64,000 nucleotides of DNA from Minisyncoccota bacterium (GCA_035531495.1 DATKSU010000006.1:1821-65820); one strand, 5' to 3'; counted from the stretch's first letter, positions 1,377 through 58,603 are shown. Notes: a model not told the origin generated them from the sequence alone. Translations and numbers: made by a program.

Positions 1377-1955
1377 ATGCGCTACCTCGTCTTCGACATC
1401 GAGACCGCCAATACCTTTCCGGGCCTCGCGCGCGCGGACCTCGACCGCCTCGAGCTTGCCCTCGTCGGCGTCTACGATTCCGGGACCGACGCCTATTCCT
1501 CGTACGTGAAAGAGGAGCTGCCGAAGCTCTGGCCGCTCATCGAGCGCACCGACCTCCTCATCGGCTTCAATTCCGATACCTTCGATATCCCGCTCTTGAA
1601 CCGCTACTACCCGGGCGACCTCACGCATGTGCGCTCCCTCGACCTCCTCGCCGAAGTGCAGAAAGCGCTCGGCCGGCGCATCCGGCTCCAGTCGCTCGCG
1701 GAAGCGACGCTCGGCAAGGGGAAGAAAGGCGACGGTCTGAAAGCCGTCGAGTGGTGGCGCGCGGGCGAAGTCGAGAAGGTCCGCGAGTACTGCCTCGAGG
1801 ACGTGCGCCTCACGAAGGAACTCTATGAATACGCCCGTACGAAGGGCTCCCTCAAATACAAGGACCTCCGCGACGTGCGCGACCTCAAGCTCGATACCTC
1901 CCGCTGGGGGAAAGCTATCGCGGCGCCATCCTTGACCCACGCGCTCCCGTTATGA
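1377..1955 (+). CDS. DEDD-family 3'-5' exonuclease (DnaQ/RNase T-like)
   Basis: N-terminal LVFDIETAN exo I motif typical of DEDD exonucleases. Its start is 3 nt after the hisS stop and its stop overlaps the next start (ATGA). Confidence 0.75.
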   Translation: MRYLVFDIETANTFPGLARADLDRLELALVGVYDSGTDAYSSYVKEELPKLWPLIERTDLLIGFNSDTFDIPLLNRYYPGDLTHVRSLDLLAEVQKALGRRIRLQSLAEATLGKGKKGDGLKAVEWWRAGEVEKVREYCLEDVRLTKELYEYARTKGSLKYKDLRDVRDLKLDTSRWGKAIAAPSLTHALPL

Positions 1956-2644
1956 GACCGGCTGCGACAATCCCTATCGCCATCGTCGCCGCCGGAATCA
2001 TCATCGCGGCCGCCGTCTACGTCACCGTCTCGAAGAATCACGGGGCTGCGGCCGTGGCGGATAATCCGGGCCTCATCCGCCCCGTGGAATCCTCCGACCA
2101 CATCTTCGGCAATCCTGCCGCGCCGGTGAAAATCATCGAGTACTCGGACTTCGACTGCGCGTACTGCAAGGGCTTCAACGATACGCTGCACGAGGTCATC
2201 GCGACGGAAGGCGCGAACGGCTCGGTCGCGTGGGTCTTCCGCGAATTCCCGCTCACCCAGGTCCACCCGGCCTCGCTCAAGCTCGCCGAGGCGGCGGAAT
2301 GCGCGGCAACGGTCGGCGGCAACGGCGCCTTCTGGAAATTCGCCGATACCCTCTTCGCGAACCAGCCGGTATCGCCGTCCGATTTCGGCGCCCTCGCCGC
2401 CGCGGTCGGCCTATCCGGCAGCGCCTTCGCATCCTGCTACGCGAACGCGTCGTCGACCGTCGACGCGCGTATCAAGGCGGATAGCAGCAACGCGCTCTCG
2501 ATGGGCGCGCACGGCACGCCTTACTCGATCATTCTCGCGCCGGACCAGCCGCCGGTCGTCATGGACGGCGCGTATTCCTACGACGCCGTGAGACAGCTCG
2601 TGGACGCGGCGCTCGCCGCCATCGCTTCCTCGACGGCGCCTTAA
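1952..2644 (+). CDS. DsbA-like thioredoxin-fold protein with N-terminal TM anchor
   Basis: CAYC (CxxC) active-site motif in FDCAYCKGF, a hydrophobic N-terminus, and the thioredoxin-like fold pattern. Confidence 0.75.
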   Translation: MRPAATIPIAIVAAGIIIAAAVYVTVSKNHGAAAVADNPGLIRPVESSDHIFGNPAAPVKIIEYSDFDCAYCKGFNDTLHEVIATEGANGSVAWVFREFPLTQVHPASLKLAEAAECAATVGGNGAFWKFADTLFANQPVSPSDFGALAAAVGLSGSAFASCYANASSTVDARIKADSSNALSMGAHGTPYSIILAPDQPPVVMDGAYSYDAVRQLVDAALAAIASSTAP

Positions 2645-28545: not shown

Positions 28546-31500
28546 TTACGCGCCGATGGCTGCGAACGCGCGGGTGAGCGCGAGCTTCGCGCCGGTCACA
28601 CTCGCCGTGTAGCTCGAGTCGATAGCGGTGGTGAGGGAGGAGACGAGCTTCTCGAGGGTCGGCGTGTCGAAGCGCGCCGTCATGCGCACGACGTCGGGGT
28701 CGCACGGCGTGCCCTCGATGCGGGCGCGGTAGGCGTCGTCGAGCATGCAAACGGCATCCGTGAGCATCTTCTCCGGGGATTCCCCGCCGCGCGCTTGCTG
28801 GCGGATAGCCGCGAAGACCGCGCTCCGGTCGCCCTCGATGAGCGCCGCGAGGAAGCCGCGCACGTGCGCCGGCGGCAACGCCGCGCCGGCGGCGGCAGGG
28901 ACCGCTTCGAACGACTCGACGTGTTCGAACACGGGTTCGACGTGCTCATAGACCGGCTCCGTCTGCGGCGCGGGCGCCGGGCGCTCCGCGCGGCGAGCTG
29001 CCGACGGCTCGCGCTCGCGCGTGAGGCCCTTTACAATGTCGTCGACGGAGAGCGCGCCGGTGGCGTGACTGAACGACTTGAACCCTTCGAAGGGCGAATA
29101 GCCGCGCGGTGCGTCGACGGGCGCCTCGGCATGCAGCGCGGCAGGCGCGGGCTGTGGCGCCAGCTCATGCGCCGGCTCCTGTTCGGCGTTCAGAGCATCC
29201 GAAAGGCGCAGACCGAACGAGTGTCCGGAGCGGACGACGAACGGCACCGCGCTGAAGAGCACGAAGTATGCGAGAGCGAGCGAAAGGCCTATGAGGACGA
29301 GCCAGTACACTGTCGTTCCGACCGGACCGAGGTCGAGGCCGGTGTACGGAATCTGCGAAAGGTAGAGGTACGCGAGCGGCGCCGTGCTCACGTGCGGGAG
29401 CGCCGCGAGCGTGATGGTCGGAGGAGGCGTTCCGCCGCCTCCGCCTCCACCACCACCGCCTCCGCCGCCTCCGCCGCCTCCGCTCGTGACGTCGAGAGTC
29501 GCCGTGCAGATGAGGGTTTGGCCGGTATCCGTGTGGAACGTGCCCGTGTACGTATGGCTGCCGATGCTCGTCGGGGATACGCTCGCCGAGCCTGAGACCG
29601 CCGTCGTCGTGCCGACGCCGTTATCGATGAAAACTCCCGTGATGCCGAGGCCGCCCCAACTCAAGGTCGCCGCATTGCCGGAGACGACGCTCGTCGGGCT
29701 GACAGCGAGCGTGCAGGACGGACCGCCGCCTCCCCCGCCGCCGCCGACCGTGACGCTTGCGGTGCAGGTGCCGACCCTACCCATCGGGCTCACGACCGTC
29801 CCAGTGAAGACGGTGTCGGCCGTGATGGCCTTCGAGGTCGTCGTCCCGCTTACAGCTGGCGCGACGCTGCCGATGCCCTGGTCGATGGAGAACGTATCGG
29901 CATCGGTCGTCGCCCAGGCGAGGATCGTGGTGTCGCCCGTCGTGACTGACGCGGGCGTCGCCGTGAGCGTGCAGGTCGGCGTCGCGGGCGGCGGCGTCGA
30001 GACGGTGATGGTCACCGCACAGTGGGCCGTACCGCCGGCGCCGATAGCCGTTGCCGTATACGTCGTCGTCGTGATCGGCGAGACGGATGTAGAGCCGCTC
30101 GCGACCGGGGTCGACGTCCCGACGCCGTTATCGATCGTGAAGGACGTCGCGTTCGCCGACGTCCACGAGAGCGTCGCCGAACTGCCGCTCGTGATGGATG
30201 CGGGATTCGCGGAAAGCGTGCAGGAGACGGCAGGAGGAGGAGACGTCGTCACCTTGACCTTCGCCGTGCAGTGAACCGTGCCGCCGGAACCGGTCGCCGT
30301 GCCGGTATACGTCGTGGTCACGATCGGCGATGTCGTCGCCGAGCCGCTCGCAACGGGCGTCACGGAGCCGACGCCGTTATCTATGGAAAAGGAAGCGGCG
30401 TTCGAGGTCGTCCAGGAGAGCGTCGCGGTATCACCGGGTGCGATGGACGACGGGCTTGCCGAAAGCGAGCACATGGGTGCCGCGGGCGGGGGCGGCGATA
30501 TCACCTGCTGGTTCTTGAAGACGACAGCTGCGCAGACAGGACCGACCGGCACGTCGACCTTCCCGTCCGCCGGCGTGACGGACAGGAGCTTCCAGGTGCT
30601 CCCGGCCGGCACTTCGGTGACCTGATGCATGCCGACGGAGACTCCACTGAACGATGCGTTGCCATTCGCGTCATTCTGCGTCGTCAGTCCGCCATCAAGC
30701 GTGAAGGTGAATTGCGCAACCGGCTTCAGTTCGTTGCCGTTCGGATCGAAGGTCTCTTTCAGTATAGAGATGCAGCCTTTCGCGGGCGGGGGCGTCGTGA
30801 CGATCACTTTCGCCGTGCAGTGAACCGTGCCGCCGGAACCCGTCGCCGTGCCGGTATACGTCGTCGTCGCGGTCGGGGAAACCGAGGTCGAGCCGCTCGC
30901 AACGGGCGTCACGGAGCCGACGCCGTTATCTATGGAAAAGGAAGCGGCATTCGAGGTCGTCCAGGAGAGCGTCGCGGAACCGCCGTTCTGGATGGACGGA
31001 GGGCTTGCCGAAAGCGAGCACGTGGGTGCCGCGGGCGGCGGGGGCGTCGTGACGGTCACGGTCGTCGTACAGTGCACGGTCTTGCCGTCCGACCCCGTCG
31101 CCGTACCCGTATACGTCGTCGTCACGGCCGGCGAGACCGTCACCGAGCCGCCGGACGCGGGCGAGACGGAACCGACGCCGTTATTGATGGAGAAGGACGC
31201 CGCGTTCTTCACGGACCAGGTAAGCGTCGTCGAGTCGCCCTTCGCGATGGATGCCGGACTCGCGGAGAGTGTGCAGGAGCACGGGCCGGGCGGCGGGGAC
31301 GTCGTGACAGTGATTGTAATCGAGCAGTGGGCCGTCGCCGTCGCGCTCGAGACCGTACCGGTGTACGTCGTCGTCACAGCTGGCGAGACCGTGACAGAAC
31401 CGTGCGCGACCGGCGTCACGGGACCGATACCGTTGTCGATTGTGAACGACGTCGCGTTCGCCGTCGCCCACGAGATGACGGTCACGGAACCGCCGTTGAT

Positions 31501-31716
31501 GCTCGTCGCGCTCGCGGAGAGCGAGCACGAGGCCGCGGCGTAGGATGAACTCAAGGAGCCGCCGGTCAGGTCGTGCGCGAACACCTGCGCCGGGGTAATC
31601 GCACCGGTCGCCAGTGCGACGACAGCGCCAAGAAGAAGCGTCGCGGATATTGCAAGGACGCCGATGAGCATCGGACGGCGGATCGTATGGGAAATGAGGT
31701 CGTGGTCGGTATGCAT
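28546..31716 (-). CDS. giant cell-surface protein (~1056 aa from M28; track ORF 1083 aa): signal/TM, at least 8 tandem Ig-like repeats, poly-Gly linkers, IPYTG motif, TM segment, ~250-aa cytoplasmic tail
   Basis: Repeats of the form CSLSASP..I..G..ATLSWTTSNAASFSIDNGVGSVTPVASGS..SP..TTTYTGTATGSGGTVHC, runs of GGGGGGGG and G17, and LSQIPYTGLDLG followed by the hydrophobic VYWLVLIGLSLALAYFVLFSAV. The sortase gene is adjacent. Confidence 0.8.
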   Translation of the reverse strand: MHTDHDLISHTIRRPMLIGVLAISATLLLGAVVALATGAITPAQVFAHDLTGGSLSSSYAAASCSLSASATSINGGSVTVISWATANATSFTIDNGIGPVTPVAHGSVTVSPAVTTTYTGTVSSATATAHCSITITVTTSPPPGPCSCTLSASPASIAKGDSTTLTWSVKNAASFSINNGVGSVSPASGGSVTVSPAVTTTYTGTATGSDGKTVHCTTTVTVTTPPPPAAPTCSLSASPPSIQNGGSATLSWTTSNAASFSIDNGVGSVTPVASGSTSVSPTATTTYTGTATGSGGTVHCTAKVIVTTPPPAKGCISILKETFDPNGNELKPVAQFTFTLDGGLTTQNDANGNASFSGVSVGMHQVTEVPAGSTWKLLSVTPADGKVDVPVGPVCAAVVFKNQQVISPPPPAAPMCSLSASPSSIAPGDTATLSWTTSNAASFSIDNGVGSVTPVASGSATTSPIVTTTYTGTATGSGGTVHCTAKVKVTTSPPPAVSCTLSANPASITSGSSATLSWTSANATSFTIDNGVGTSTPVASGSTSVSPITTTTYTATAIGAGGTAHCAVTITVSTPPPATPTCTLTATPASVTTGDTTILAWATTDADTFSIDQGIGSVAPAVSGTTTSKAITADTVFTGTVVSPMGRVGTCTASVTVGGGGGGGGPSCTLAVSPTSVVSGNAATLSWGGLGITGVFIDNGVGTTTAVSGSASVSPTSIGSHTYTGTFHTDTGQTLICTATLDVTSGGGGGGGGGGGGGGGGGTPPPTITLAALPHVSTAPLAYLYLSQIPYTGLDLGPVGTTVYWLVLIGLSLALAYFVLFSAVPFVVRSGHSFGLRLSDALNAEQEPAHELAPQPAPAALHAEAPVDAPRGYSPFEGFKSFSHATGALSVDDIVKGLTREREPSAARRAERPAPAPQTEPVYEHVEPVFEHVESFEAVPAAAGAALPPAHVRGFLAALIEGDRSAVFAAIRQQARGGESPEKMLTDAVCMLDDAYRARIEGTPCDPDVVRMTARFDTPTLEKLVSSLTTAIDSSYTASVTGAKLALTRAFAAIGA
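29700..31560. repeat. near-identical tandem DNA repeats (~270-280 bp unit) encoding the Ig-like domains
   Basis: Stretches such as 30255-30440 and 30800-30985 are almost identical at the nucleotide level. Confidence 0.7.
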
Positions 31717-31796: not shown

Positions 31797-32474
31797 CTAC
31801 CCGGGAATCGGATGACTTTCAACAAAGTCGGCGACAACGACGAAACGGTCGGATTTCGAGGCGAACGAGTCACAGGTCGAGAGGGTGAGGACGCGACCTG
31901 TGACCGACAGCGGAATAGCGGCATCGTTCGCACTCTCCTTCGTCATGCTCACGACCGCATAGACGTACGCCATGTCAGCGGAGTCCACCTCAATGGAGTC
32001 GCCGCTCTCGAGCTTCTGGATGCCGTCGAAGGTCTTATAGGCCTGGTTCAGCACGATCGGCAGATAGCTCGAGTGGCCGAAGAGGACGACGTTGCCCGGC
32101 TCCCCGAGCTCCGCGGAGGTCGGGTAGCGCACGGCGCCTTTGAGGAGCAGCTGGTCGAGCGCATCGATATTCGTCGTGTCCGGATTCGCGATGGCCGCCG
32201 AGAGCGCGATTGACGGGATTGATATCTTTACCGGGAACTCGGCGCCCGCTGCGGGCGCGGGCGCCCTCGTGCCCGCTGCGACGAGGACGTCCGACGAGAG
32301 CGCCACCGCCGGCGCGGCCGGCGCGGCCGGATCCGGCAGGAGGTCGAGCCGCGCGAGGACGGCGACGCCCGCGCCGAAGACGAATACGGAAATGACGAGG
32401 AAGCTCCACTTCCTCCCATAGGCCCGCTTCCCGGCCCGGATGAGCCGCGCGACGATGCGAATGACGCTTACCAT
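31797..32474 (-). CDS. sortase family transpeptidase
   Basis: N-terminal TM anchor, catalytic His in VVLFGHSS and the TLSTCD Cys motif characteristic of sortases. Confidence 0.75.
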   Translation of the reverse strand: MVSVIRIVARLIRAGKRAYGRKWSFLVISVFVFGAGVAVLARLDLLPDPAAPAAPAVALSSDVLVAAGTRAPAPAAGAEFPVKISIPSIALSAAIANPDTTNIDALDQLLLKGAVRYPTSAELGEPGNVVLFGHSSYLPIVLNQAYKTFDGIQKLESGDSIEVDSADMAYVYAVVSMTKESANDAAIPLSVTGRVLTLSTCDSFASKSDRFVVVADFVESHPIPG

Positions 32475-32502
32475 GATTGTCTCGCCCATACATACGCCGA
32501 GT

Positions 32503-47948: not shown

Positions 47949-50036
47949 CTAGAATTCCTGGAAGGTCGGCACCGTGTTTACGGTTGTCTTCTGCGAGATC
48001 ATCGTGCCCTCGAAGGTCTGGCAAGAGATGGTGTAGACGGATTGGCTATTGATGGCGACGGTCTGCGAGCCGGAGAGTGCCGCGGAGGAGACGCCGGGGC
48101 CGGAGACCTTGCAGCTCTTGACGGCCTGCGAGGACCACGAGATGGTCGATTGGCTTCCCGTATGGACGCGCGCGGGACTCGCCGTGATGGTCGCGCCCGG
48201 CGGGATGACGGTAATCGTGATGGATGGGGACGGCGAAGAACCACCGGGGCCCGTGCAGGTGATGCCGTACGGCGTCGTCACCGCTGGGGTGACCGTCACG
48301 CTGCCGGACGTCGCGCCGCCTGTCGAGAAGCCGGAACCGGTGCAGGAAGTCGTGTTCGACGAGGTCCATGTGATAGTCGCGGACTGTCCCTGGTCGATCG
48401 TGTACGAGTCGGCGGAGAGCGTCACCGTCGGCGGCGGATTCGCGACCGTGAGGTAGAGCCACGGGCCGCAGTCGTCGCCCGTGTTCGTCTCGTTCACCGA
48501 GAGCTGCCACGAGGTATTGTGGTTCGCGCAAGCGCGCACCTCGTACGTGCCGGCGGAGGGGAACTGATAAGTCGCAGAGATGGTGGTGTTCGCGTTCACG
48601 GCGAGCGAAGCGACGGTGCCGCCATCGAGCAGCGCGACCGTCGTTGTCGCGCCTCCCACGCCAGAATGCTGCGCGATCTGGAAGAGGTTGTCGAAGTTAT
48701 AGGCAGTAGCGGTCCCGACGTTATACACGGGAGCGGACAATGTTTCGTTGACGGTTGCAACCACCGGCGTCGGCGTCACCGTCGTCGGGCCGGCGTAGAG
48801 GCCGGGCAGCGTGCAACGCGAGTCGGGCGGCGCTGTTGCAGAACACGTGACACCGTCGCATTCTATCGTGCCGGTATTCGACTGCCCGCAGGCGTTCGTC
48901 GCGGTGCAGGTCTGGCCGAAATTGGCAGGCACGGGCGGCGGCGAAAGCGGCGTCGGGGTGCCGCAGGCGACCCACTGGATGCCGGTATTTTGACTGGTCG
49001 TATCCCACCCTTGACCGGCGACGAAATTTCCCCAGCCGCCATAGTTCGTGCTACCGCCATAGGCAGAGCCCCCACCGTTATGTCGAGATTCCGCGTAGTA
49101 ACTGAGTACACAAGATTGCCCTTGCAAGGGCGGGCAGGTGGTGCAGCTGCCGGAGTAGGAATCACAAACGGGGGTGCAGGAGATGTACGTTGGACTGCAA
49201 GAGTAGGTAAAACCGCCATATCCATCGGATGTTCCGGATAGATAACCATACGTATTCTGGTCCGGGGCAGGAGCATAGTCGGTGTATTCAGTAGCGCCGA
49301 GTGGAGCGGGCTTCCCCGCGAGCTGACAGACCATCGATTCGGCCGTATAGACGCTTTGACCGCTGTAGTTGCCGCGGAAGTCGTCGTAAGTCCCGAGCCA
49401 GTGGCCGGAAGGCGTTATCGTGTTCGTGTATACGTAGTTGGATGGCGGATTCGAGGTGCAGATGCCGCCGACGACGACACCAGTCGCGGTCTGCCCGCAG
49501 GCGTTCGTCGCTGAACAGGTCGTGCAGTACGGCATCGTGAAGCTGTTCGTGGAGATGACGTCAGTCGTCGATGTGAGCAAATAGCCGCCGTAGCTGTAAA
49601 AGATTGAATACGTATAGCTCTGTCCGGATGACCCGCCATTCCAGGTATAGGTGCCGTTGCAGTGCTGACTGGTCGCGACGACCGTGCCGTTCATGGAGAT
49701 GGAAACGGGCGTCGCCGTGGTGCATGCCGAGCCGGGCGCAGCCGTCCATTGGAGAGAGACGACCGGGCTGCCGTTATTGCACGTCGGTCCGGACGTTATG
49801 CTCGACGACCCGCAGGCGGGCGCGACGATGCCGGAGCCGACCTGCGTGAGCCAGGAGGTTCCGCCCGACGCCGGCGTGCTCGTCGCGGCGGCGATGATGG
49901 CGGAGCCGAACTGCGTGAGTCCGGAGGTGTCGAGCGCCGCGGGAAGGCTGGCGGCAGCCGCGACGGTCGGGATGGTAGCAGCGCAGGCAGCACTAACAAA
50001 GACGAGTATCGCGAATAGGCCCCTCGAATGCCGCAT
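47949..50036 (-). CDS. secreted Cys/Thr/Ser/Gly-rich protein with C-terminal Ig-like repeats
   Basis: Signal peptide MRHSRGLFAILVFVSAACAA, many Cys pairs, a duplicated C(S/T)ATNACGQ motif and C-terminal TVTLSADSYTIDQGQSATITWTSSNTTSC Ig-like modules. The start has TATACT 7 nt upstream. Confidence 0.7.
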   Translation of the reverse strand: MRHSRGLFAILVFVSAACAATIPTVAAAASLPAALDTSGLTQFGSAIIAAATSTPASGGTSWLTQVGSGIVAPACGSSSITSGPTCNNGSPVVSLQWTAAPGSACTTATPVSISMNGTVVATSQHCNGTYTWNGGSSGQSYTYSIFYSYGGYLLTSTTDVISTNSFTMPYCTTCSATNACGQTATGVVVGGICTSNPPSNYVYTNTITPSGHWLGTYDDFRGNYSGQSVYTAESMVCQLAGKPAPLGATEYTDYAPAPDQNTYGYLSGTSDGYGGFTYSCSPTYISCTPVCDSYSGSCTTCPPLQGQSCVLSYYAESRHNGGGSAYGGSTNYGGWGNFVAGQGWDTTSQNTGIQWVACGTPTPLSPPPVPANFGQTCTATNACGQSNTGTIECDGVTCSATAPPDSRCTLPGLYAGPTTVTPTPVVATVNETLSAPVYNVGTATAYNFDNLFQIAQHSGVGGATTTVALLDGGTVASLAVNANTTISATYQFPSAGTYEVRACANHNTSWQLSVNETNTGDDCGPWLYLTVANPPPTVTLSADSYTIDQGQSATITWTSSNTTSCTGSGFSTGGATSGSVTVTPAVTTPYGITCTGPGGSSPSPSITITVIPPGATITASPARVHTGSQSTISWSSQAVKSCKVSGPGVSSAALSGSQTVAINSQSVYTISCQTFEGTMISQKTTVNTVPTFQEF

Positions 50037-50092
50037 ACTTAGAAGTATACCGTGGCCGCGCTTTGCATGAGCGCTATCCACACGCGGGATGG

Positions 50093-50959
50093 CTACAGGC
50101 CGCTCACGCGCGCGCGGGCGAGGTTCACGGCTATCGCGTCCTGAAAGGACTTGATGCCCGCAGCGCTCATCGCCGGGTCGTTGCCGGGATACGCGGCGAC
50201 CCAGGATGCTTCCGTGAGGCCCGCCGCAAGCGTCTGCGCCCGTTCGAAGGCGTTCGCGGCAACCGCGAATTCGTTCAGATTGAGCTCCTGAACGCCGAGG
50301 TTGTTCCAGAGCCATGGATTCTCTTCGCCTCCCGTCGCCATCGTGACGCCGCGCTCGAGGAGCGTCTTCGCTTCGGCGTATTTCCCTTCCTGCCCGAGCA
50401 CCCAGGCGAGGTCATTGTAGCCCGCCCATTCGGTCGGCGCCCACGAGACGAACGTCGTGAAATCGCTCTCGGCACCGGCGAGGTCACCGCGGTAGGCGCG
50501 TATGAGCCCGCGAACATAGTAGGTGCGGAAATTGTCGGGATGATACGAAAGCTCCCCGTCCGCCGCGGCTTCAGCTTCGGGGAGCCGGTTTTCGACGAGG
50601 AGGATGCGTGCGAGCTCGTAGTGGCCCCAGAGCATGCTCGGGTCTATGGCGACGACTCTGCGAAAGGCATGTTCGGCGAGCGGCAAGTCGTAGGCGCCGA
50701 GACCGAAGGCATAGCTGCCGACGTCGAAGGCAAGCTGTGCGTCGCGTTCATCAAGCACGAGGATGAGCGGCGCTGCGCTGGTGTCATTATTCCGCCAGAG
50801 ATACTCGGCGGCGGCCGTCGACAGCGGCGTGCAAAAGACGATGACTATGACGAGGTCGAGTGCGGTAACGAGGGCGAGGACGGCGAAGCACACGAATTGG
50901 ATTGCGCGTTTGCACGACGGACGTTCCCGAGGAATCGTTCCCGTGCTCGTCCCGTCCAT
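50093..50959 (-). CDS. TPR-repeat protein with N-terminal TM anchor
   Basis: Tetratricopeptide-like helical repeats (AEHAFRRVVAIDP, YYVRGLIRAYRGDLAGAESDF). Start taken at M21, which has TATAGT 9 nt upstream. Confidence 0.6.
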   Translation of the reverse strand: MDGTSTGTIPRERPSCKRAIQFVCFAVLALVTALDLVIVIVFCTPLSTAAAEYLWRNNDTSAAPLILVLDERDAQLAFDVGSYAFGLGAYDLPLAEHAFRRVVAIDPSMLWGHYELARILLVENRLPEAEAAADGELSYHPDNFRTYYVRGLIRAYRGDLAGAESDFTTFVSWAPTEWAGYNDLAWVLGQEGKYAEAKTLLERGVTMATGGEENPWLWNNLGVQELNLNEFAVAANAFERAQTLAAGLTEASWVAAYPGNDPAMSAAGIKSFQDAIAVNLARARVSGL

Positions 50960-50997
50960 ACGCGATACACTATAGCATCGACCTTTCGACCAGCCGT

Positions 50998-51792
50998 ATG
51001 TTGCCGCTACGCCGCGCACGAACCGCCCCTCGCCTGTCGTATATCGTCTGCAGCGATCGCCGTACTGGCGGTACGCTCCTGTGCGAAGCGCTGCGGCGTA
51101 CGAGCATCGCCGGCAGGCCGGGGGAATATTTCAACCCGCTTCTCGACACGCCGGCGTTCCGGAAAGACCATCTCGGCATCACGGCGGATGCCGAATACCT
51201 GCCGCGCGTCGTCGAGCTCTCGACGACGCCGAACGGCGTCTTCGGCATGAAGATACACTTCGGCCAGCTGCCGCTTCTCCTCGAACGCATCGGGGCGGAG
51301 GGGCGCGCCGCGGGCGCATCGCCGGCGGCGGCGTTCGCGGCGCGCTTCCCCGGCTTGCGGTACGTGTGGCTGCGCCGCAGAGACGAAGTACGGCAAGCGA
51401 TATCCCTTTACCGGGCGCAGAAGACGAATATCTGGTGGGAGTTCCCTGACGAAGAACCGCCACTCTACGCCTACCAGCCCCCCGAGCGTGAGACGGCCGA
51501 AGATGTGTTCGACTTCGAAGCCATCAGCCGCTGCCTCGCGGATGTACAGTCGACTGCCGGACGATGGGAGCAGTTCTTTTCAGAGAACGATATCGTGCCG
51601 CTGCGGCTCACCTACGAAGAGCTCGATGCGGCGTATGAGGAGACGGTCGCGCGCGTCTTGCGATTCCTCGAACTCACCGTTCCGGAGCACATTCCGCCGA
51701 AGAACATGGCGCGCCAAGCGGATGGCCGGACGGATGCCTGGGTTGAGGAATTCCGGCAGCGGAGTCGCGGCCTGCGCGACGCACCCGGCTGA
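50998..51792 (+). CDS. Stf0-type sulfotransferase family protein
   Basis: N-terminal SYIVCSDRRTGGTLLCEAL PAPS-binding loop typical of the Stf0 sulfotransferase family. Confidence 0.55.
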   Translation: MLPLRRARTAPRLSYIVCSDRRTGGTLLCEALRRTSIAGRPGEYFNPLLDTPAFRKDHLGITADAEYLPRVVELSTTPNGVFGMKIHFGQLPLLLERIGAEGRAAGASPAAAFAARFPGLRYVWLRRRDEVRQAISLYRAQKTNIWWEFPDEEPPLYAYQPPERETAEDVFDFEAISRCLADVQSTAGRWEQFFSENDIVPLRLTYEELDAAYEETVARVLRFLELTVPEHIPPKNMARQADGRTDAWVEEFRQRSRGLRDAPG

Positions 51793-51889: not shown

Positions 51890-52510
51890 ATGAAAAGCGC
51901 CATCCTGTTGTCGTTGTCGCTCATGCTCGGCGCATGCGCGGCCATCGAAGCGCCGCAGACGCCGCCGCCCGGCGTACGGCTTGTCGAGGAGCCGGACGTG
52001 CGGCCCGGCGACTGGTGGATTGAGCGGAACGGCGGCTCTGTCTGGAAGGTAACGGTGACATCCGTCGACGGCGATCTCGTGCGGACGACGGTCGGCGACC
52101 CGTTCGGCCTCATGAAGCCGCACACAGTCGTCTTCCGTAAGGGCGGCGCGCTCGTGGAAGGTCCGGGCGGCCTCATGGGCCGCGCGACTCACTGGACGAA
52201 CTGGTATCCGAGCTACGAGCCGCTCTCGTTCCCACTCTGGGCAGGAAAGGAGTGGAGCGGATGGGTCACCTGGACGGCAACCGGAATATCGGGAAGTTAT
52301 CATGTCTCGGCGATCGCCGGTCCTTGGCAGTCATGGTACGTCGGCGAACGGAAATTCGATGCGCTGAAGATCACGTACCGTCTCGATCGCCTGGAAGCGG
52401 CGCCGGTCACCGATACGTGCTGGTATGTACCGGCGGCGAAGTGGCTCGGCTCCTGTGACCGGTATTGGACCTGGGATGATTACCGCGTCACCGCGTTCGG
52501 CGGCAACTAG
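51890..52510 (+). CDS. lipoprotein, paralog of 57906-58550
   Basis: Lipobox LMLGAC, a GGAGG SD, and a shared GDxW..KV / PL..GK.W pattern with the other paralog. Confidence 0.6.
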   Translation: MKSAILLSLSLMLGACAAIEAPQTPPPGVRLVEEPDVRPGDWWIERNGGSVWKVTVTSVDGDLVRTTVGDPFGLMKPHTVVFRKGGALVEGPGGLMGRATHWTNWYPSYEPLSFPLWAGKEWSGWVTWTATGISGSYHVSAIAGPWQSWYVGERKFDALKITYRLDRLEAAPVTDTCWYVPAAKWLGSCDRYWTWDDYRVTAFGGN

Positions 52511-52600: not shown

Positions 52601-54055
52601 ATGCGTTCCGCGAGCTTCATCGATGACGTGCGCGCCCGCTGGTACCGGTTCCGGCTGGATCGCAGCGTCCGCGCCTTGCCGCTTGAGCTCGTCGCGGACT
52701 CCGGAGCGCGAGCCGACAAAGAGAGCTCGGCATTCCGCCGCTACGCGCGGGAGCTTGAGCGGTACATCGCCGTCCTCGAGGACATCCGCCGGCGCGGGCC
52801 GTCGTTCGTCGGGCGATTCCAGGAACTGCGACTCGAGAAGTTGCTCCGCCGCGCGGCTGCGAGCGCGTACTGGCGGAGCGTCTTCGAGCGCTCCGGCGTC
52901 AATCCCGGCGACATTCGACGGCTCGCGGATCTCGCGCGCATCCCGCCCGTCGGCCGCACGGGCCTCATCGACGTGCCGCGCGACGCTTCCGCGACGGAGA
53001 AGCTGCCGGACAATGCCGTCTACTGGATGCGTTCCTCCGGCAGCACGACTGGCACGCCGTTCATCTGGGGTTCGTACGCATGGGACTGGCCGCTTGCGGT
53101 GTGGTCGTATCACCTGCGGGAGCTCGACGCGCGGGGCTTCTCGCTTGCGACGAGCGCGCACCGCGATTTCCTCTTCCAGATAAATTACGGCGGCGGCAAC
53201 GCGGTCTTCCAGATGTTCTTCATAGAGAACTTCCGGCTCCGGCCGCGCGGAGACGCCGCTGAAGAAGACGCGCGCGCTATCGTCGCCGCAATCGAAGAGG
53301 TCGGCCCGTCGGTGCTCCTATGCAACCCGACCGAACTCGCCTCGTTCCTGCACGCGCTCGATGCACTCGGCCGGCAACCTCCCATGACGGGCTGCCTCCT
53401 CGTGGGTCAGCCGATTGAAGAGGCATTCCAAGAGCACGCCGAACGCCTCCTCGGCTGTCCCGTTATCCCCTACTACAGCACGATGGAGACCGCGGCTATC
53501 GGCGCCGGATGCCGCCATGCGCCGGGCAGGTATCACACGTATGCCGAGCGGGTCATCGTCGAGATACTCGACGACGCGGGAAGGCAGGTCGCCGACGGCG
53601 AGCGCGGCAATATCACCGTAACCTGCCTCGATAACCTCTTCATGCCGCTCATCCGCTACCAGCCGGGCGACGTCGGCACGCTGCGGCATCGCGTCTCCTG
53701 CCCGTGCGGGAACCCGAATCCGCTCCTCGAAGTCGAGGGTCGGTCGGTCGACGTCATCCGATTCGCGGATGGTTCCGCCGAATCAGTCCGCCGCGTCTTC
53801 AAGCTGCTTGCCGCCGATCCCTTCCTCACGCGCATCCGCCGGATGCAAGTGCGGCAGGAAGAGCTCGGCACGCTCCGCATACTCCTCGAGCCGCGCGACG
53901 CGATACTCGGTCCCGCCGTCATCCGCGAACTCAAGAAGCGGATTGACGTGCTTTACGAGGGCAAGATTCGCGTCACCGTCGAAGAGGTGAGGGAGATAGA
54001 CCCCGGTACGAAGAAATTCAAAGCATTCGTCCCGCTTGCGCCGCGTACGCGCTAG
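52601..54055 (+). CDS. PaaK/CapK/F390-synthetase-like adenylate-forming enzyme
   Basis: SSGSTTGTPF P-loop, YYSTMETAAIG, RYQPGDVGTL and VSCPCGNP motifs. A TATCAT -10 lies 24 nt upstream. Confidence 0.65.
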   Translation: MRSASFIDDVRARWYRFRLDRSVRALPLELVADSGARADKESSAFRRYARELERYIAVLEDIRRRGPSFVGRFQELRLEKLLRRAAASAYWRSVFERSGVNPGDIRRLADLARIPPVGRTGLIDVPRDASATEKLPDNAVYWMRSSGSTTGTPFIWGSYAWDWPLAVWSYHLRELDARGFSLATSAHRDFLFQINYGGGNAVFQMFFIENFRLRPRGDAAEEDARAIVAAIEEVGPSVLLCNPTELASFLHALDALGRQPPMTGCLLVGQPIEEAFQEHAERLLGCPVIPYYSTMETAAIGAGCRHAPGRYHTYAERVIVEILDDAGRQVADGERGNITVTCLDNLFMPLIRYQPGDVGTLRHRVSCPCGNPNPLLEVEGRSVDVIRFADGSAESVRRVFKLLAADPFLTRIRRMQVRQEELGTLRILLEPRDAILGPAVIRELKKRIDVLYEGKIRVTVEEVREIDPGTKKFKAFVPLAPRTR

Positions 54056-55233
54056 CTTGGCGGATACGCTTTTTGCGCCTCAGCGACCGTCTTCCCGAAT
54101 GCGGGAATATCGCGCGCGACCCGCATGATGCCGCTGCCGAGAATGGTGCCTGACGATATCTGTTTGGAAAGCCAGTACTCGAAGGACGGCAGGGTTCCCT
54201 TGGCCTCAACGGGAACGAGGAGCATCGCGGTCTGCGTCACGCCGCCCTGTCCGTACCGTCGTATGATGGATATCGCGTAGCTGACGCGGATGATGAAATT
54301 ATACGTCGTAACCTTGTCGACGATGGCGGAAGGAGCGGCGGACGGATCGCTATACGTGACGGCTGACTGGTAGAGGGAATCTATCTGCGCATCAGCGGAG
54401 GTGCCGAGGAGCTGCGTCTCGAGGCTCAAGGCGAGCGCATTAAGATACATCAAGCGCGCGAGGTACATCCGTCCGGGATAGCTCGTGGGACTCGAGGGTA
54501 CGAGCTTCGTATTCGGTGCCGGCAGCGCATCGCCCTCGGCGAGCAGCTTTTGTATGTCCTGGCCATATGCGGTCGCCTCCGTCGTCGTAGACAGCGAACC
54601 GCGTAAGAGCGAATACTCCTGCGCGTACGTCATCGCGAGCTCGACCTTCGACCCGCGCGTCGGATAGAGGGTGTCGGCGACCTCGTAGAGCGAACGGATG
54701 CCGCGGAGCACGGAGAGCGCATACGGGTCGGCGCTCGTCGCGCTCTCGAGCGCAGGGTCGTAATAGCGCGAATAGGGACTCTGCGAGAAGACGAGCGTGC
54801 GGAAGGACGCCGCATCGAAATACGAAAGCTCGTAGGCGTAGCCGATCGAGGCGAGCGCCGCGGAACGTATCCAGGCGCCCACCTGGGCGTCAGAGCCGAT
54901 GCTCATGTAAGTCGCGAGTGCCTGCTCGAGCGCCGGCTTCGTACTCGGGTCTGCCGGGCTGTAGTTATCCAGGATCGTGTTCGCGAGGAGGAATTGCGCT
55001 TGCGCCTTCAGGTCAGCGTTCAGGATGTTCTCGGCAAGGAGCGTGTGCAGCTCCGCTGCGGCGCCCGAGATATCGCCGGCAGCGTATGACGCGCGTGCGG
55101 CCTGGAACTGCGCCTCCTGCGCAGTGAGCGTCGCCGCCTGCTTCTCTTGCCACAGGAAGACCGCCATGACGACAATCATAACGCCGAACGCGATGAGTGC
55201 TACCGAGCGGAGTATCTGGTTCGTGTTTTGCAT
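54052..55233 (-). CDS. membrane-anchored protein co-transcribed downstream of the Cys/Gly-rich precursor-like ORF
   Basis: Start at MQNTNQ (M22 of the track ORF) 11 nt after the precursor stop. It has an N-terminal TM and a large extracytoplasmic domain of unknown function. Confidence 0.55.
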   Translation of the reverse strand: MQNTNQILRSVALIAFGVMIVVMAVFLWQEKQAATLTAQEAQFQAARASYAAGDISGAAAELHTLLAENILNADLKAQAQFLLANTILDNYSPADPSTKPALEQALATYMSIGSDAQVGAWIRSAALASIGYAYELSYFDAASFRTLVFSQSPYSRYYDPALESATSADPYALSVLRGIRSLYEVADTLYPTRGSKVELAMTYAQEYSLLRGSLSTTTEATAYGQDIQKLLAEGDALPAPNTKLVPSSPTSYPGRMYLARLMYLNALALSLETQLLGTSADAQIDSLYQSAVTYSDPSAAPSAIVDKVTTYNFIIRVSYAISIIRRYGQGGVTQTAMLLVPVEAKGTLPSFEYWLSKQISSGTILGSGIMRVARDIPAFGKTVAEAQKAYPPS

Positions 55234-55244
55234 ACGCCGGAGAG

Positions 55245-55550
55245 TCAGCAACAGGCACCACCACCGCCACCACCGCCACCACCGCCGCCCGAGCAATCGC
55301 CGTCAGAACAGCTGCATGTACCGCAACAGGAGGAGCATCCGCCACCTGTGCTGGCAGGCGCAGCGACGTCAGCATGCGCGATGTCTGGGGAGAAAATGCT
55401 TCGCGAGAGGTTCTGGTTCATTTTCCCCGGGGTCCAGAGCTTTGTCGTCCCGTAGAAGAATACGGAGAGGAAGCCGAGCGGGATGGAAAGCGCGACAATG
55501 GCGCCTCGTATGAAGCTCCTCAAGCCGTTCGGGGTGCGCATCGTTGCCAT
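55245..55550 (-). CDS. candidate RiPP precursor peptide with microcin-B17-like Gly/Cys/Ser-rich C-terminal core (alternative start M44 at 55421)
   Basis: C-terminus GGGCSSCCGTCSCSDGDCSGGGGGGGGGGGACC. Located next to YcaO and SagB-like genes, with a TAGTAT -10 box 11 nt upstream. The poly-Gly run is encoded by a perfect (GGC GGT GGT) repeat. Confidence 0.6.
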   Translation of the reverse strand: MATMRTPNGLRSFIRGAIVALSIPLGFLSVFFYGTTKLWTPGKMNQNLSRSIFSPDIAHADVAAPASTGGGCSSCCGTCSCSDGDCSGGGGGGGGGGGACC

Positions 55551-55624
55551 AAGCTCTTGTCATACTATCGCGCCCGCCTGCGGTATCCGTCGAGCGCTGT
55601 GGATAAGCGAGCGTTTTCGCTGTT

Positions 55625-57094
55625 ATGATGGCTCCGATGCTGAAGGACATCATGCCGTTCGACCACGTATGGCCGCGCCTGCACGGGAAGTCGCGCTCCG
55701 GGCAAGCGACGGCGGCGTTCATCCGATTCCTTGAAGGCAAGCTTGGCGCCTCCGTCACCTACGACGCTGCGCGCATCGGATACGAATCGCCCGACCTCAT
55801 CGATCTGTTCGAGCTCGCCGAGCGGCTGCGGGCGGCGAACGTCGTCCAGCAGTACGCGAGAACGCGAAGCCTTCCCGACGAGCCGCGGCTCTCGCGCTGG
55901 CAGGCGCGACTCCTCATCCAGGGAGGACGGCGCGAGATGGCGAGCGGCGCATCGGCGGACGACGACCGGCACGCGCTCACCGTGACGCTCGCCGAGGCGC
56001 TTGAGCGCTACGTATGGCTCGGCTCTCTCGACGCGTTCCCGACGCTGCGCGTTGCGCGACTCGAGGACATGACAACCGACGCGTTCATCGACCCGAGACG
56101 CTTCGCCGGCTTCAGCGATGCGCAGTTGGACGAGCATCCGTCGCTGCGCATCGAGCCAGGAAGCTCGTTCAACTTGGTCTCGGGGCATTCGTGGACGCGC
56201 GGACGGGCGGTCTGGATACCCGCGCAGGCAGTAAGCGGGCACGCGACGCTTTTGCCGCGCGAGCAGAAGCACGTCGAACCGACCATCCGCCTCGCGATTA
56301 CGACCGGCCTCGCGACGCATCCGCAGCGCGCGAAAGCGCTCCTTTCGGGCGCGCTCGAGATTATCGAGCGCGACGCTTATATCATCACGTGGTTCAATCA
56401 GCTCTCGCCGCCGCGGATAGACGTCGATGAGCTCACCGGGAAACGGGAATCGCTCGCACGGCTCGTCGAGCGCTGCCGGCGGTATCGGCTAGAACCGCAC
56501 ATGCTCCGCTTCCCGACCGATGCGCCCGCGTATGCGCTCGGCGTCGTGCTCGAAGACGCGTCTGGCTCGCTGCCCCGCTTCACGCTCGGCTGTAAGGCCG
56601 ACCGCGATGCGGCGCACGCGGCGGAGGGCGCGCTCCTCGAGGCCATGCGGGCGCGCTCGAACACGCGCGAACTTGCGGTTTCGCTCAAGGACGACTGGGA
56701 TTCCGAGCGCAAGGCCGCCGATGTGGGGCACCTCGACCGTTGGCTCTACTGGGCGGAACCGGGCCGCGCGGAGCGCCTCGGTTTCCTCGTCAAGGGTCTC
56801 GTCCGGCCGCTCGCGCAGGAAGCGTGGGAGCGCGATTCGGACGAGGAGCATTTCCAGCGCATAACGGATTGGTGCCGGGAGCGCGGGTACGAGCTCGCAT
56901 CGGTGAGCTTAACGAAAGCAGCCGCGAACCTGCCGGGCTGGCACATCGAAATGGTCGTCATTCCAGAATTGCAGCCGATCAATCATTTCGAGAAGCTGCC
57001 GCCTGTCGGCGGAGCGCGCCTTACGGATATCCCGCGCCGGTTCGGATTCGAGCCGCGCGCGCCGTATCTCGCGGATCCGCATCCGTTCGCGTGA
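55625..57094 (+). CDS. YcaO-domain protein (azoline-forming cyclodehydratase-like)
   Basis: LAEALERY and GALEIIERDAYIITWFNQ motifs match the YcaO ATP-binding and catalytic blocks. C-terminal PHPF. Confidence 0.7.
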   Translation: MMAPMLKDIMPFDHVWPRLHGKSRSGQATAAFIRFLEGKLGASVTYDAARIGYESPDLIDLFELAERLRAANVVQQYARTRSLPDEPRLSRWQARLLIQGGRREMASGASADDDRHALTVTLAEALERYVWLGSLDAFPTLRVARLEDMTTDAFIDPRRFAGFSDAQLDEHPSLRIEPGSSFNLVSGHSWTRGRAVWIPAQAVSGHATLLPREQKHVEPTIRLAITTGLATHPQRAKALLSGALEIIERDAYIITWFNQLSPPRIDVDELTGKRESLARLVERCRRYRLEPHMLRFPTDAPAYALGVVLEDASGSLPRFTLGCKADRDAAHAAEGALLEAMRARSNTRELAVSLKDDWDSERKAADVGHLDRWLYWAEPGRAERLGFLVKGLVRPLAQEAWERDSDEEHFQRITDWCRERGYELASVSLTKAAANLPGWHIEMVVIPELQPINHFEKLPPVGGARLTDIPRRFGFEPRAPYLADPHPFA

Positions 57095-57104
57095 GTCGCT
57101 CTGT

Positions 57105-57860
57105 ATGGCCACATTCATCTCCCGCATCCATGCATACCTCCGGCGCGCGCGGGCGCCGCACGATACGCCCGCAAAGCAGCACTCCTCGCCGGCGAGCGCG
57201 GCGAAAGCATATCGCCGCATGCCGCGCATCGCGCTCCCCGCGCCCGGGGCGCTCTCCGTGCCGCTCCACCAGGCGCTCGGCGAGCGTGCATCGTTCTTCG
57301 AGTGCGCGGGCGGGCGGGCGCTCACGCGAGCGGAGCTCGGCACGCTGCTTGGCAACGCGCTCGGCATGCGCGACGGCGAGCGGCGGCGCTACCCGTCGGG
57401 CGGCGGGCTCTTCCCCATAGAGACGTATCTCATCGGGACCGTCCTCGAAGGGCATCCGCCCGGCGCCTTCCACTACCAGCCGAACGCGCACGAGCTTGAA
57501 TTCCTCTGGGAAACGCCCGCCGCGTTCGCGTCTTCCGATCTCATGCGTACGGAAGATGCGCCGCGCGCGCCGATTGTCATCGTCTTCACATCCGTCTGGG
57601 AACGCTCCGCAGTGAAGTACGGCGATTTCTCTTACCTGCTCGGCCTCCTCGAGGCCGGCCACATGGCGCAGAACCTCCTCCTCGCGGCGACGGCGCTCGG
57701 GTTCGGCAGCCGGCCGATGGCCGGTTTCGATGACGAGAGAATCGCGGCGCTCCTCGACCTCGATGAAAGCGTCGAGCAGCCCATCTATGCTGTCCTCCTG
57801 TGCCCGGGCGAGAACGGCGCTATGCGGAAGGCGCCGAAGCGGGAGACGAACGGCGAATAA
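57105..57860 (+). CDS. SagB/McbC-type FMN-dependent dehydrogenase (nitroreductase fold)
   Basis: RRRYPSGGGLFPIETY and C-terminal QNLLLAATALGFGSRPMAGFDDE motifs. Starts 10 nt after the YcaO stop, consistent with translational coupling. Confidence 0.7.
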   Translation: MATFISRIHAYLRRARAPHDTPAKQHSSPASAAKAYRRMPRIALPAPGALSVPLHQALGERASFFECAGGRALTRAELGTLLGNALGMRDGERRRYPSGGGLFPIETYLIGTVLEGHPPGAFHYQPNAHELEFLWETPAAFASSDLMRTEDAPRAPIVIVFTSVWERSAVKYGDFSYLLGLLEAGHMAQNLLLAATALGFGSRPMAGFDDERIAALLDLDESVEQPIYAVLLCPGENGAMRKAPKRETNGE

Positions 57861-57865
57861 AGAAA

Positions 57866-57888
57866 GGCCATGCGTCGCCGCATGGCCC
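57866..57888. terminator. bidirectional hairpin terminator
   Basis: GGCCATGCG-TCGCC-GCATGGCC perfect 9-bp stem in the convergent gap. Confidence 0.5.
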
Positions 57889-57905: not shown

Positions 57906-58550
57906 TCATTGCACGTGGTCGGACACGAGTTCTATGGTGAAGCGGTTATATAAGGTTCCGCCCCAGTTCGTGTCGTGGTATTCGAGCTTCACGTATGCCC
58001 TCGCCCGCGGCGAATACCAGATTGTCTCGTGCATCTGTCCGCTGCCGGACCTTGCGCCGAAACTCGACTGATAACCACCACCGTAGACGATTTTCAGCGC
58101 CTGGTAGCCGTTCACGGTCTCCCAGTCAATTACTTTCGCGGACAGGTCGTACGTGCCGCTCAGCACACTCCCGACCTTGTCGAACTTTGCCTTCGACTCC
58201 CACGTCTTGCCGACCGTGAGCGGGAACGCGAGGAGCTGGCTGTCGGGCGCGTACTTCATCGTCGATCCGGCGGCCGAGACGCCTGTGAGGGCGTTCAAGT
58301 CGGGTGTCTCCGTGACGTTCATCGTGCCGTGCTTCTCGGACTGGCGGACGAACGTGACGTTGGACCCGTCGATCTTCGAGACGGTCTGGGTGTAGGTGTC
58401 GACCGACGTATTACGCCAGTTGTCAATGACCTTGTACGTCCACGAATCGCCGACCTTTAAGACCGGCCGCTCCACTGCTGCAGGAGCGCCATCGGCACTG
58501 GCACAGAACATAGCTGAAACGAGTGCAAGAGCGAAAAGCTTCTGAGACAT
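57906..58550 (-). CDS. secreted protein, paralog of 51890-52510
   Basis: Signal peptide MSQKLFALALVSAMFCASA and a GAGGAGG SD 6 nt upstream, with a strong promoter further upstream. Confidence 0.6.
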   Translation of the reverse strand: MSQKLFALALVSAMFCASADGAPAAVERPVLKVGDSWTYKVIDNWRNTSVDTYTQTVSKIDGSNVTFVRQSEKHGTMNVTETPDLNALTGVSAAGSTMKYAPDSQLLAFPLTVGKTWESKAKFDKVGSVLSGTYDLSAKVIDWETVNGYQALKIVYGGGYQSSFGARSGSGQMHETIWYSPRARAYVKLEYHDTNWGGTLYNRFTIELVSDHVQ

Positions 58551-58603
58551 GACTGCCTCCTCATATTGGGGTTGCGGGCGCAAGGATTGCTCTCCCGGAT
58601 TAA

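Follow-up and report, generated by a model that had tools for sequence, protein, structure and literature searches.

Peptides of the linear azol(in)e-containing type, also grouped as thiazole/oxazole-modified microcins (LAP/TOMM; examples are microcin B17, streptolysin S and plantazolicin), are encoded by clusters that comprise at least a precursor, a YcaO protein and a dehydrogenase, in most cases along with an E1-like or ThiF-like protein through which the leader is recognized (PMC7136475). For the candidate phyla radiation (CPR), an antiSMASH survey by Sharrar et al. (2020) revealed 110 LAP clusters in 93 genomes (51 Parcubacteria), with a nitroreductase beside YcaO in 89 cases (PMC7298704). 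The example illustrated there from Microgenomates combines an 84-aa precursor with a peptidase (PMC7298704). The YcaO proteins of bottromycin biosynthesis act without partner proteins (PMC7136475). Bufferins are made from Cys-containing precursors with a Sec signal, whose heterocycles are formed in the cytoplasm before the peptide is exported by the general pathway and cleaved by signal peptidase (PMC11626156), and modified peptides of the lipoprotein pathway likewise have precursors with export signals and no dedicated transporter (PMC13056109). The locus analyzed here lies in a stretch of 64,000 nucleotides (DATKSU010000006.1:1821-65820, henceforth the window) from a metagenome-assembled genome (MAG; GCA_035531495.1) of Candidatus Paceibacterota, a CPR group, with a GC content of about 65%. 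It contains a small gene for a Gly/Cys/Ser-rich peptide, divergent from genes for a YcaO cyclodehydratase and a SagB-type dehydrogenase, and probably constitutes a system for a ribosomal peptide of the linear azol(in)e type, in a form specific to Paceibacterota/Kaiserbacteria, the leader of which doubles as a Sec-type signal or anchor. Its principal features are the following:

55245-55550, minus strand: gene of the precursor peptide, complete from M1 with 101 aa (open reading frame (ORF), leader hidden Markov model (HMM), synteny; annotated as VMV50_01675 in the source MAG)
55452-55502, minus strand: hydrophobic leader helix, residues 17-33, AIVALSIPLGFLSVFFY, preceded by the basic residues 1-16 (hydropathy scan)
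55368-55379, minus strand: A58-H59-A60/D61 motif, candidate signal-peptidase-type site between leader and core (family conservation)
55248-55370, minus strand: predicted core peptide, residues 61-101, DVAAPASTGGGCSSCCGTCSCSDGDCSGGGGGGGGGGGACC, with 8 Cys, 6 Ser, 2 Thr and a run of 11 Gly
54052-55233, minus strand: 393-aa membrane-anchored TPR-like protein of a family termed fam370 (family HMM; paired with the precursor gene)
55625-57094, plus strand: YcaO cyclodehydratase, 489-aa ORF, likely start M5 at 55637 (PF02624, TIGR03604)
55625-55960, plus strand: N-terminal extension of YcaO, residues 1-112, outside the SagD/YcaO family models
57105-57860, plus strand: SagB/McbC-type FMN dehydrogenase, 251 aa (TIGR03605, PF00881)

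As in the known LAP/TOMM systems, a YcaO-domain ATP-dependent cyclodehydratase (D protein) and an FMN azoline dehydrogenase of the SagB/McbC type (B protein) are encoded side by side, with the small gene adjacent to them. Both enzymes had been recognized in an initial annotation of the sequence, and their identity was confirmed by family models. YcaO matched PF02624 with 145.9 bits (E=2.4e-42, cut-off 25.7) and carries the blocks EALERY and ALEIIERDA and the C-terminal PHPFA, comprising the PHPF that had been pointed out in that annotation. The dehydrogenase reached 128.1 bits with TIGR03605 (cut-off 78.4), also matched PF00881 and contains RRRYPSGGGLFPIE. In 65 YcaO homologues, residues E124, E127 and R128 (EALER), E245, E248 and R249 (LEIIERDA) as well as P485 and P487 are invariant, and H486 and F488 of the C-terminal PHPF nearly so. 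Proline-rich C-termini like PHPF have been reported for azoline-forming YcaO proteins. The Lys-Tyr pair of the dehydrogenase (K171-Y172) is conserved to 97-100% in 76 homologues, R94, P97, S98 and G100 (R-x-x-P-S-x-G) are conserved too, and the gene adjoins that of YcaO in nearly all related loci.

The AlphaFold2 (AF2) model of YcaO is confident, with a mean predicted local distance difference test (pLDDT) of 94.3. What separates this protein from the YcaO proteins of the known LAP/TOMM systems is some 110 additional N-terminal residues, which are not covered by the Pfam and TIGRFAM models since these begin at residues 111-113. The extension is conserved among the homologues (D85-E86-P87 is invariant) and was modeled as a confident fold of alternating strands and helices, but no sequence relative was found for it in Pfam or the PDB. 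Matches of YcaO to PDB entries were restricted to the YcaO domain, and with 489 aa the protein is too short for a C-D fusion. More distant YcaO relatives from outside the CPR align from about residue 73-122, residues 85-112 or so with the DEP motif being alignable, and by this comparison only the first 80 residues or so look specific to the CPR clade. It is conceivable that the extension binds the leader.

The 101-aa ORF, which ends in ...GGGCSSCCGTCSCSDGDCSGGGGGGGGGGGACC, yielded self matches only in word-seeded searches of protein databases, as did the 393-aa protein, because both families diverge too fast for such searches. Relatives were detected by synteny and by local jackhmmer and HMM searches. 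In related Paceibacterota/Kaiserbacteria, an ORF of the same build recurs next to YcaO in about 40 loci; hence, the loss of the small Cys/Gly-rich ORF in related genomes, which the initial annotation had named as an observation that would speak against the system, did not emerge. With an HMM of the leader alone, 46 ORFs were found (in L001-L011, L013-L017, L019-L033, L037 and L039-L041), and the ORF of the window matched such a model built from its relatives with E=1.7e-15. Judged by its sequence relatives, it is a genuine gene.

The members of the family share an N-terminal basic segment, often MV[AV]x[QR][KR]xYxxGR, which is followed by a hydrophobic helix (about 19 residues) and a Pro-Lys/Arg turn; 10-34 spacer residues then lead to the motif [V/T]-A-H-A-D-[A/V/T]-P and to a low-complexity tail. 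Since the alignment of the family runs from residue 1 and its most conserved part is the hydrophobic N-terminal region, an alternative start at M44 with a conventional precursor of 58 aa, considered initially, was ruled out. In 35 family members, the N-terminal side of the helix carries on average +3.5/-0.3 charges and the C-terminal side +1.5/-1.4, for which the positive-inside rule predicts that the N-terminus is inside and the C-terminus outside the cell. The motif at the end of the leader is strongly conserved. In 47 unique members, position -1 is always Ala, position -3 is Ala in 39 (otherwise V, S, T or G), position +1 is Asp in 42 and position +3 is Pro in 34, which makes A60/D61 a candidate site for signal peptidase. 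A basic segment, a helix and an A-x-A motif, which may be the elements of a Sec signal, are present in the leader, and in this respect it is unlike the leaders of LAP/TOMM precursors.

The cores, by contrast to the leaders, are hypervariable. Their median length is 44 residues and their median Cys content 6 (range 0-22), and the pooled cores consist of 29.5% G, 16% C, 15% S, 12% D, 10% A and 5% T, with basic residues essentially nil. The duplicated precursors L025a and L025b possess identical leaders but different cores. A conserved leader joined to a hypervariable Cys/Ser/Thr/Gly-rich core, encoded next to the modifying enzymes, typically marks modified ribosomal peptides and was likewise described for LAP/TOMM precursors; the strongly acidic character of the cores, on the other hand, sets the family apart from them. 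The description of the peptide as microcin-B17-like holds for the composition of the core but not beyond it, as no other Mcb component (McbB, exporter, pentapeptide-repeat protein) accompanies it. A repeated GGY triplet, GGCGGCGGTGGTGGCGGTGGTGGCGGTGGTGGT, underlies the 11-Gly run (55254-55290, minus strand), and this site is likely to vary in length through slippage.

Approximately 120 YcaO homologues were identified, nearly all of them in MAGs of Kaiserbacteria, Paceibacterota or Minisyncoccia, and their loci were examined together with 78 loci from species-representative genomes. Starting from YcaO, the peptide gene and a homologue of the 393-aa protein were found in almost all CPR-clade loci that include upstream DNA. 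For the reverse search, an alignment of 18 fam370 sequences proved too divergent as a seed, while one of seven sequences worked and gave 15 metagenome loci. Nine of these have at least 650 nt of upstream sequence; YcaO lies upstream of fam370 in all nine, and a peptide matching the leader profile lies directly upstream of fam370 in seven. The linkage of YcaO, peptide and fam370 holds in both search directions. In two distant variants of the locus (L052, 9866-13639; L054, 9896-13530) YcaO, peptide, fam370 and a TPR gene are arranged head to tail on one strand, and YcaO has a short N-terminus (432-441 aa).

The pairing of the precursors with a membrane-anchored TPR protein is a further difference from LAP/TOMM systems. 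A fam370 HMM built without the window sequence matched the 393-aa protein with E=4e-25. Local jackhmmer searches detected the family in about 35 loci, every copy being located directly downstream of a precursor gene, and two to three such pairs occur in L014, L017, L019 and L022. Proteins of this family evolve fast; they have a hydrophobic N-terminal anchor and TPR repeats at profile positions 50-135 or thereabouts, whereas the other 230 or so residues match nothing.

As far as components are concerned that LAP/TOMM systems commonly possess, the locus is reduced. Thirty proteins of the 64-kb window were scanned against Pfam and NCBIfam/TIGRFAM, and the 25 most frequent families among 127 neighbouring ORFs of 17 related loci were considered. 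No ThiF/E1-like (C or F) partner was found in the window proteins, and neither were ABC exporter, pentapeptide-repeat or protease/peptidase families; ThiF/E1-like, ABC-transporter and peptidase families were also missing among the frequent neighbour families. The absence of an E1-like partner, a pentapeptide-repeat protein and an ABC exporter had been noticed initially, and it extends to the recurrent neighbours in the 17 loci. In the window and among these neighbours there was also no TfuA and no multinuclear non-haem iron oxidative (MNIO, DUF692) enzyme with a DUF2063 partner. Genes like those for McbB, McbE, McbF and McbG of microcin B17 were not found, the D-like protein and the C(dehydrogenase)-like protein being the only counterparts present. 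Thus, the window locus differs from LAP/TOMM clusters: it has neither an E1-like or ThiF-like partner nor an immunity protein, and both an ABC exporter and a protease for the leader are missing. Its YcaO would be expected to work without E1-like, ThiF-like or TfuA proteins, which recalls the partner-free action of the standalone YcaO proteins of bottromycin biosynthesis; in bottromycin precursors, however, there is no signal sequence and a follower peptide is present, and their clusters contain no SagB-type partner arranged in this way. To the bufferins the precursors are similar in their Cys content, in the candidate N-terminal export signal and in the lack of a dedicated transporter. However, bufferins are modified to 5-thiooxazoles by an MNIO enzyme and its DUF2063 partner rather than by YcaO and SagB, and they fold as small proteins while the cores of this family are of low complexity.

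Outside the genes already mentioned, three features of the locus are relevant:

50093-51019, minus strand: membrane-anchored TPR protein (TPR Pfam matches; recurrent neighbour)
52601-54055, plus strand: PaaK/acyl-adenylate-ligase-like protein, 484 aa, possible accessory gene (weak NCBIfam matches)
55551-55624, no strand: divergent intergenic region between precursor and YcaO genes, 74 nt from the first YcaO ATG

The cluster had initially been regarded as compact, but it is not isolated and belongs to a larger conserved neighbourhood. In about 35 related loci, tblastn detected a homologue of the TPR protein at 50093-51019 no more than 10 kb away from YcaO, and the families recurring in the 17 surveyed loci are TPR (15 loci), nitroreductase (12), PQQ/BamB-type beta-propeller (8), DsbA-like thioredoxin (7) and rhodanese (6). 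A frequent gene order is peptide, fam370, DsbA-like, rhodanese and TPR, divergent from YcaO, SagB and a beta-propeller gene; the window locus is a reduced version of it, lacking DsbA-like, rhodanese and beta-propeller genes at the site itself. An N-terminal membrane anchor is present in the rhodanese, whose body is predicted to lie outside the cell. An exported product rich in Cys would be in keeping with such membrane-anchored neighbours of the DsbA-like and rhodanese-like types. A thioamidation with the neighbouring rhodanese as sulfur donor was considered and rejected, because of the membrane anchor of this protein, the absence of TfuA and the tight linkage of SagB; with TIGR03266 (McrA thioamidation), YcaO scored 41 bits against a cut-off of 365. 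In the window, a membrane-anchored DsbA-like thioredoxin is encoded at 1952-2644 (plus strand), about 50 kb away from the cluster, whereas in relatives the DsbA-like gene sits within the peptide operon. A cytoplasmic protein of 549 aa with a weakly phosphoribosyltransferase-like N-terminus and a PQQ/ACSF4-type beta-propeller is encoded directly after SagB in L001 (7198-8847) and about 28 other loci; it is missing from the window and is therefore not essential to the core system.

According to the proposed mechanism, YcaO would use ATP in the cytoplasm to cyclodehydrate Cys and probably some Ser/Thr residues of the 41-residue G/C/S/D-rich core, and the resulting azolines would be converted to azoles by the adjacent SagB-type flavoprotein. 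Within the 60-residue leader, the conserved basic N-terminal segment is a candidate enzyme-recognition element, for which the N-terminal extension of YcaO may be the counterpart, standing in for the E1-like/ThiF-like docking protein. After modification of the core, the hydrophobic helix would act as a Sec/YidC signal or anchor that leaves the C-terminus outside, where a general type I signal peptidase may cut the A-x-A motif in front of Asp. General secretion and signal peptidase would in this way replace the missing dedicated exporter and leader protease. The 393-aa TPR protein, present one to one with the precursor genes, and the second TPR protein are predicted to face outward, where they would serve the exported peptide as chaperones, hold it back or provide immunity to it; the anchored DsbA-like and rhodanese-like proteins would likewise encounter it there. 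A more far-reaching interpretation that joins these steps can be put forward only tentatively. In it the leader is a signal-anchor, the N-terminal domain of YcaO recognizes the substrate, housekeeping Sec and signal peptidase export and cleave the peptide, and the cognate TPR protein holds an acidic product rich in azoles and thiols at the surface. Such a system, present throughout the lineage, would serve metal binding or host attachment of these episymbionts rather than act as a classical antibiotic, and would be the first YcaO-dependent family to use the general secretion pathway.

Several observations weigh against an azole peptide exported by its own leader. With TIGR03604 (SagD family), YcaO matched positions 3-377 of 377 but remained with 199.1 bits below the trusted cut-off of 219.25, a near miss that marks it, as far as its sequence goes, as a divergent subfamily. 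The distance between helix and A-x-A site (median 21 residues, range 10-34) is long for signal peptidase, and the predicted site is unusually far from the helix also in comparison with bufferins. A peptide with a signal-anchor might moreover be inserted into the membrane before the enzymes act. Eight of the 47 cores contain at most one Cys, and the two head-to-tail loci L052 and L054 possess no SagB gene and Cys-free G/D/S cores (ALADAP...GGGGDGGSGGGYSDGG...); for these reasons thiazole formation is not a universal outcome. The DsbA-like neighbours suggest that some Cys residues stay thiols or form disulfides. As to the 393-aa protein, its outward orientation was deduced solely from the charge rule, and its AF2 model, calculated from the single sequence, is all-helical and of low confidence (pLDDT 47.6).

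A less probable alternative is that the product is mainly an exported, membrane-anchored envelope peptide rich in Cys, Asp and Gly that binds metals or forms disulfides as a surface or metal-homeostasis factor, not an azole antibiotic, and that the TPR, DsbA-like and rhodanese-like proteins act on it extracellularly, YcaO modifying it lightly or introducing a backbone thioamide, an amidine or an unoxidized oxazoline. N-terminal anchors on all operon partners, the recurrence of DsbA-like and rhodanese-like genes, the acidic cores devoid of basic residues, the existence of cores without Cys and of loci without SagB, and the precedent of bufferins as Sec-exported metal-binding modified peptides agree with it, as does the conservation of the cluster throughout the clade amid housekeeping genes, which is unlike the patchy occurrence of bacteriocin clusters. 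Nevertheless, it is unlikely as a full account since YcaO has a SagB protein with an intact Lys-Tyr pair beside it, both in the window and in almost every close relative, which points to oxidation of azolines to azoles, and the PHPF terminus with its invariant prolines is of the kind reported for azoline-forming YcaO proteins. Furthermore, no TfuA was found in the scans, and a rhodanese predicted to be extracellular would not supply sulfur to a cytoplasmic YcaO. Even if unlikely to be the whole account, the envelope peptide may describe the biological role of the product. Still less probable is a conventional cytoplasmic LAP antibiotic akin to microcin B17, with a hydrophobic segment that is just an odd leader helix or is bypassed by a start at M44, an unlinked transporter and the 393-aa protein as a docking scaffold facing the cytoplasm. 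The likeness of the Gly/Cys/Ser core to microcin B17 and the pairing of each precursor with a protein that has TPR repeats of a peptide-binding type and an orientation known from prediction are in line with this assumption. It conflicts, however, with the conservation from residue 1, with charges that place both the core and the body of the 393-aa protein outside the cell and with the absence of McbB-, McbE-, McbF- and McbG-like genes from the window and the recurrent neighbours, and it leaves the A-x-A/D motif without a role. That the 101-aa ORF is a chance frame in GC-rich DNA with GGN repeats, YcaO and SagB acting on an unlinked substrate, might be thought in view of its low-complexity tail, overlapping ORFs in other frames, protein searches returning the query only and a codon-position GC atypical of the source genome. 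The match to the leader profile and some 40 syntenic homologues with conserved motifs, in loci that range from 36 to 65% GC, effectively refute this explanation. Taken together, a LAP-type system with a leader that also serves export is still the probable interpretation.

The initial annotation had positioned the ORFs of 101, 393, 489, 251 and 484 aa correctly, including the 11-nt distance between the small ORF and the ATG of the 393-aa gene at 55233; this gene is also 393 aa long in the NCBI model, which makes a longer TTG-started version of 414 aa superfluous. Some finer details had to be revised. The divergent gap, given as 75 nt, amounts to 74 nt from the first ATG and to 86 nt if counted to M5 (55637), the likely start of YcaO given the NCBI model of 485 aa and the family consensus MLKD. 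The genes of YcaO and the dehydrogenase, thought to be translationally coupled, are close (10 nt apart) but do not overlap. A TAGTAT hexamer proposed as the -10 box of the precursor gene exists, but a promoter scan of the gap detected no -35/-10 pair above threshold on the minus strand; its single site is located on the plus strand at 55600-55629 and overlaps the first YcaO ATG. A GC-rich hairpin followed by a T-run at 57865-57888, between SagB and a convergent gene of 225 aa, looks like a terminator for the minus strand.

On the other side of the cluster, the gene of the 484-aa protein indeed abuts it by a convergent 4-nt overlap with the 393-aa gene, but its assignment as a PaaK-like enzyme is less certain. 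NCBIfam matches of the PaaK/acyl-CoA-ligase type were weak (93 bits at most, far under the cut-offs), and no match was obtained in Pfam. Relatives with 25-29% identity are encoded near YcaO in six other loci, in L021 directly after SagB on the same strand. The possibility that this enzyme substitutes for the E1-like protein was rejected because its presence in only six other loci argues against a core component.

Some further genes surround the cluster. On its two sides, genes for paralogues of about 210 aa are located (57906-58583, minus strand; 51890-52510, plus strand), both of them secreted or lipoprotein-like and with the motif RPD[IV]KxGDxW; they have no family match, and relatives adjoin YcaO in L001-L003. 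A Stf0-type sulfotransferase (50902-51792, plus strand; PF09037, E=5e-38), which could be a tailoring enzyme, has homologues near YcaO in L006, L008 and L020, and L004 contains an arylsulfotransferase. At 47949-50315 (minus strand), a Cys-rich repeat protein of 788 aa is encoded that includes a CARDB domain and seems to have an N-terminal anchor; in many loci its relatives are again encoded no more than 10 kb from YcaO clusters, and it may thus be part of the same surface module. Farther away, an ORF with a run of 17 Pro (29384-31543, plus strand) adjoins a sortase gene (31797-32489, minus strand), and ORFs at 30278 and 30827 open with nearly identical VPPEPVAVPVYVVV..., indicating an internal DNA repeat. 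Possibly these ORFs reflect a large repeat protein beside the sortase, read in the antisense direction. The remaining genes of the window have housekeeping functions (RpoB/C, sigma-70, tRNA synthetases, GyrB, PolIII alpha, S2, RF and others).

LAP clusters with YcaO and nitroreductase have been known in CPR bacteria since 2020 (PMC7298704). With the same enzyme pair in the same superphylum, the cluster type of the window was probably already counted in that survey (PMC7298704). In the searchable literature text, no description was found of a signal-anchored leader with A-H-A-D-x-P or of a 1:1 partner like fam370, nor of a neighbourhood of exofacial TPR, DsbA and rhodanese proteins or a family-wide lack of the docking protein combined with an extended YcaO. 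Other CPR loci contain classical LAP-type precursors with soluble leaders (L055, 1539-1760; L056, 9899-10099), one of the two with a Lys-rich CGGxCKGG repeat, so that at least two distinct precursor types occur in CPR genomes. The locus L056 (Levybacteria, Microgenomates), where a 67-aa peptide with a soluble leader is encoded, may correspond to the Microgenomates type of Sharrar et al., though with the nucleotidyltransferase-family neighbour in place of the peptidase.

Programs that expect short soluble leaders may overlook precursors such as those described here. If the proposed interpretation is true, a single precursor and two enzymes would suffice for azole peptides in bacteria whose genomes are very small, general secretion taking the place of docking protein, exporter and protease. 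Sec-signal leaders, so far shown for MNIO-modified peptides, would extend to YcaO chemistry, and YcaO might carry, in its N-terminal segment, a novel kind of domain for leader recognition. For the biology of CPR bacteria, the interpretation would point toward a modified Cys-rich peptide that is conserved, directed to the surface and possibly of importance in handling metals or contacting host cells.

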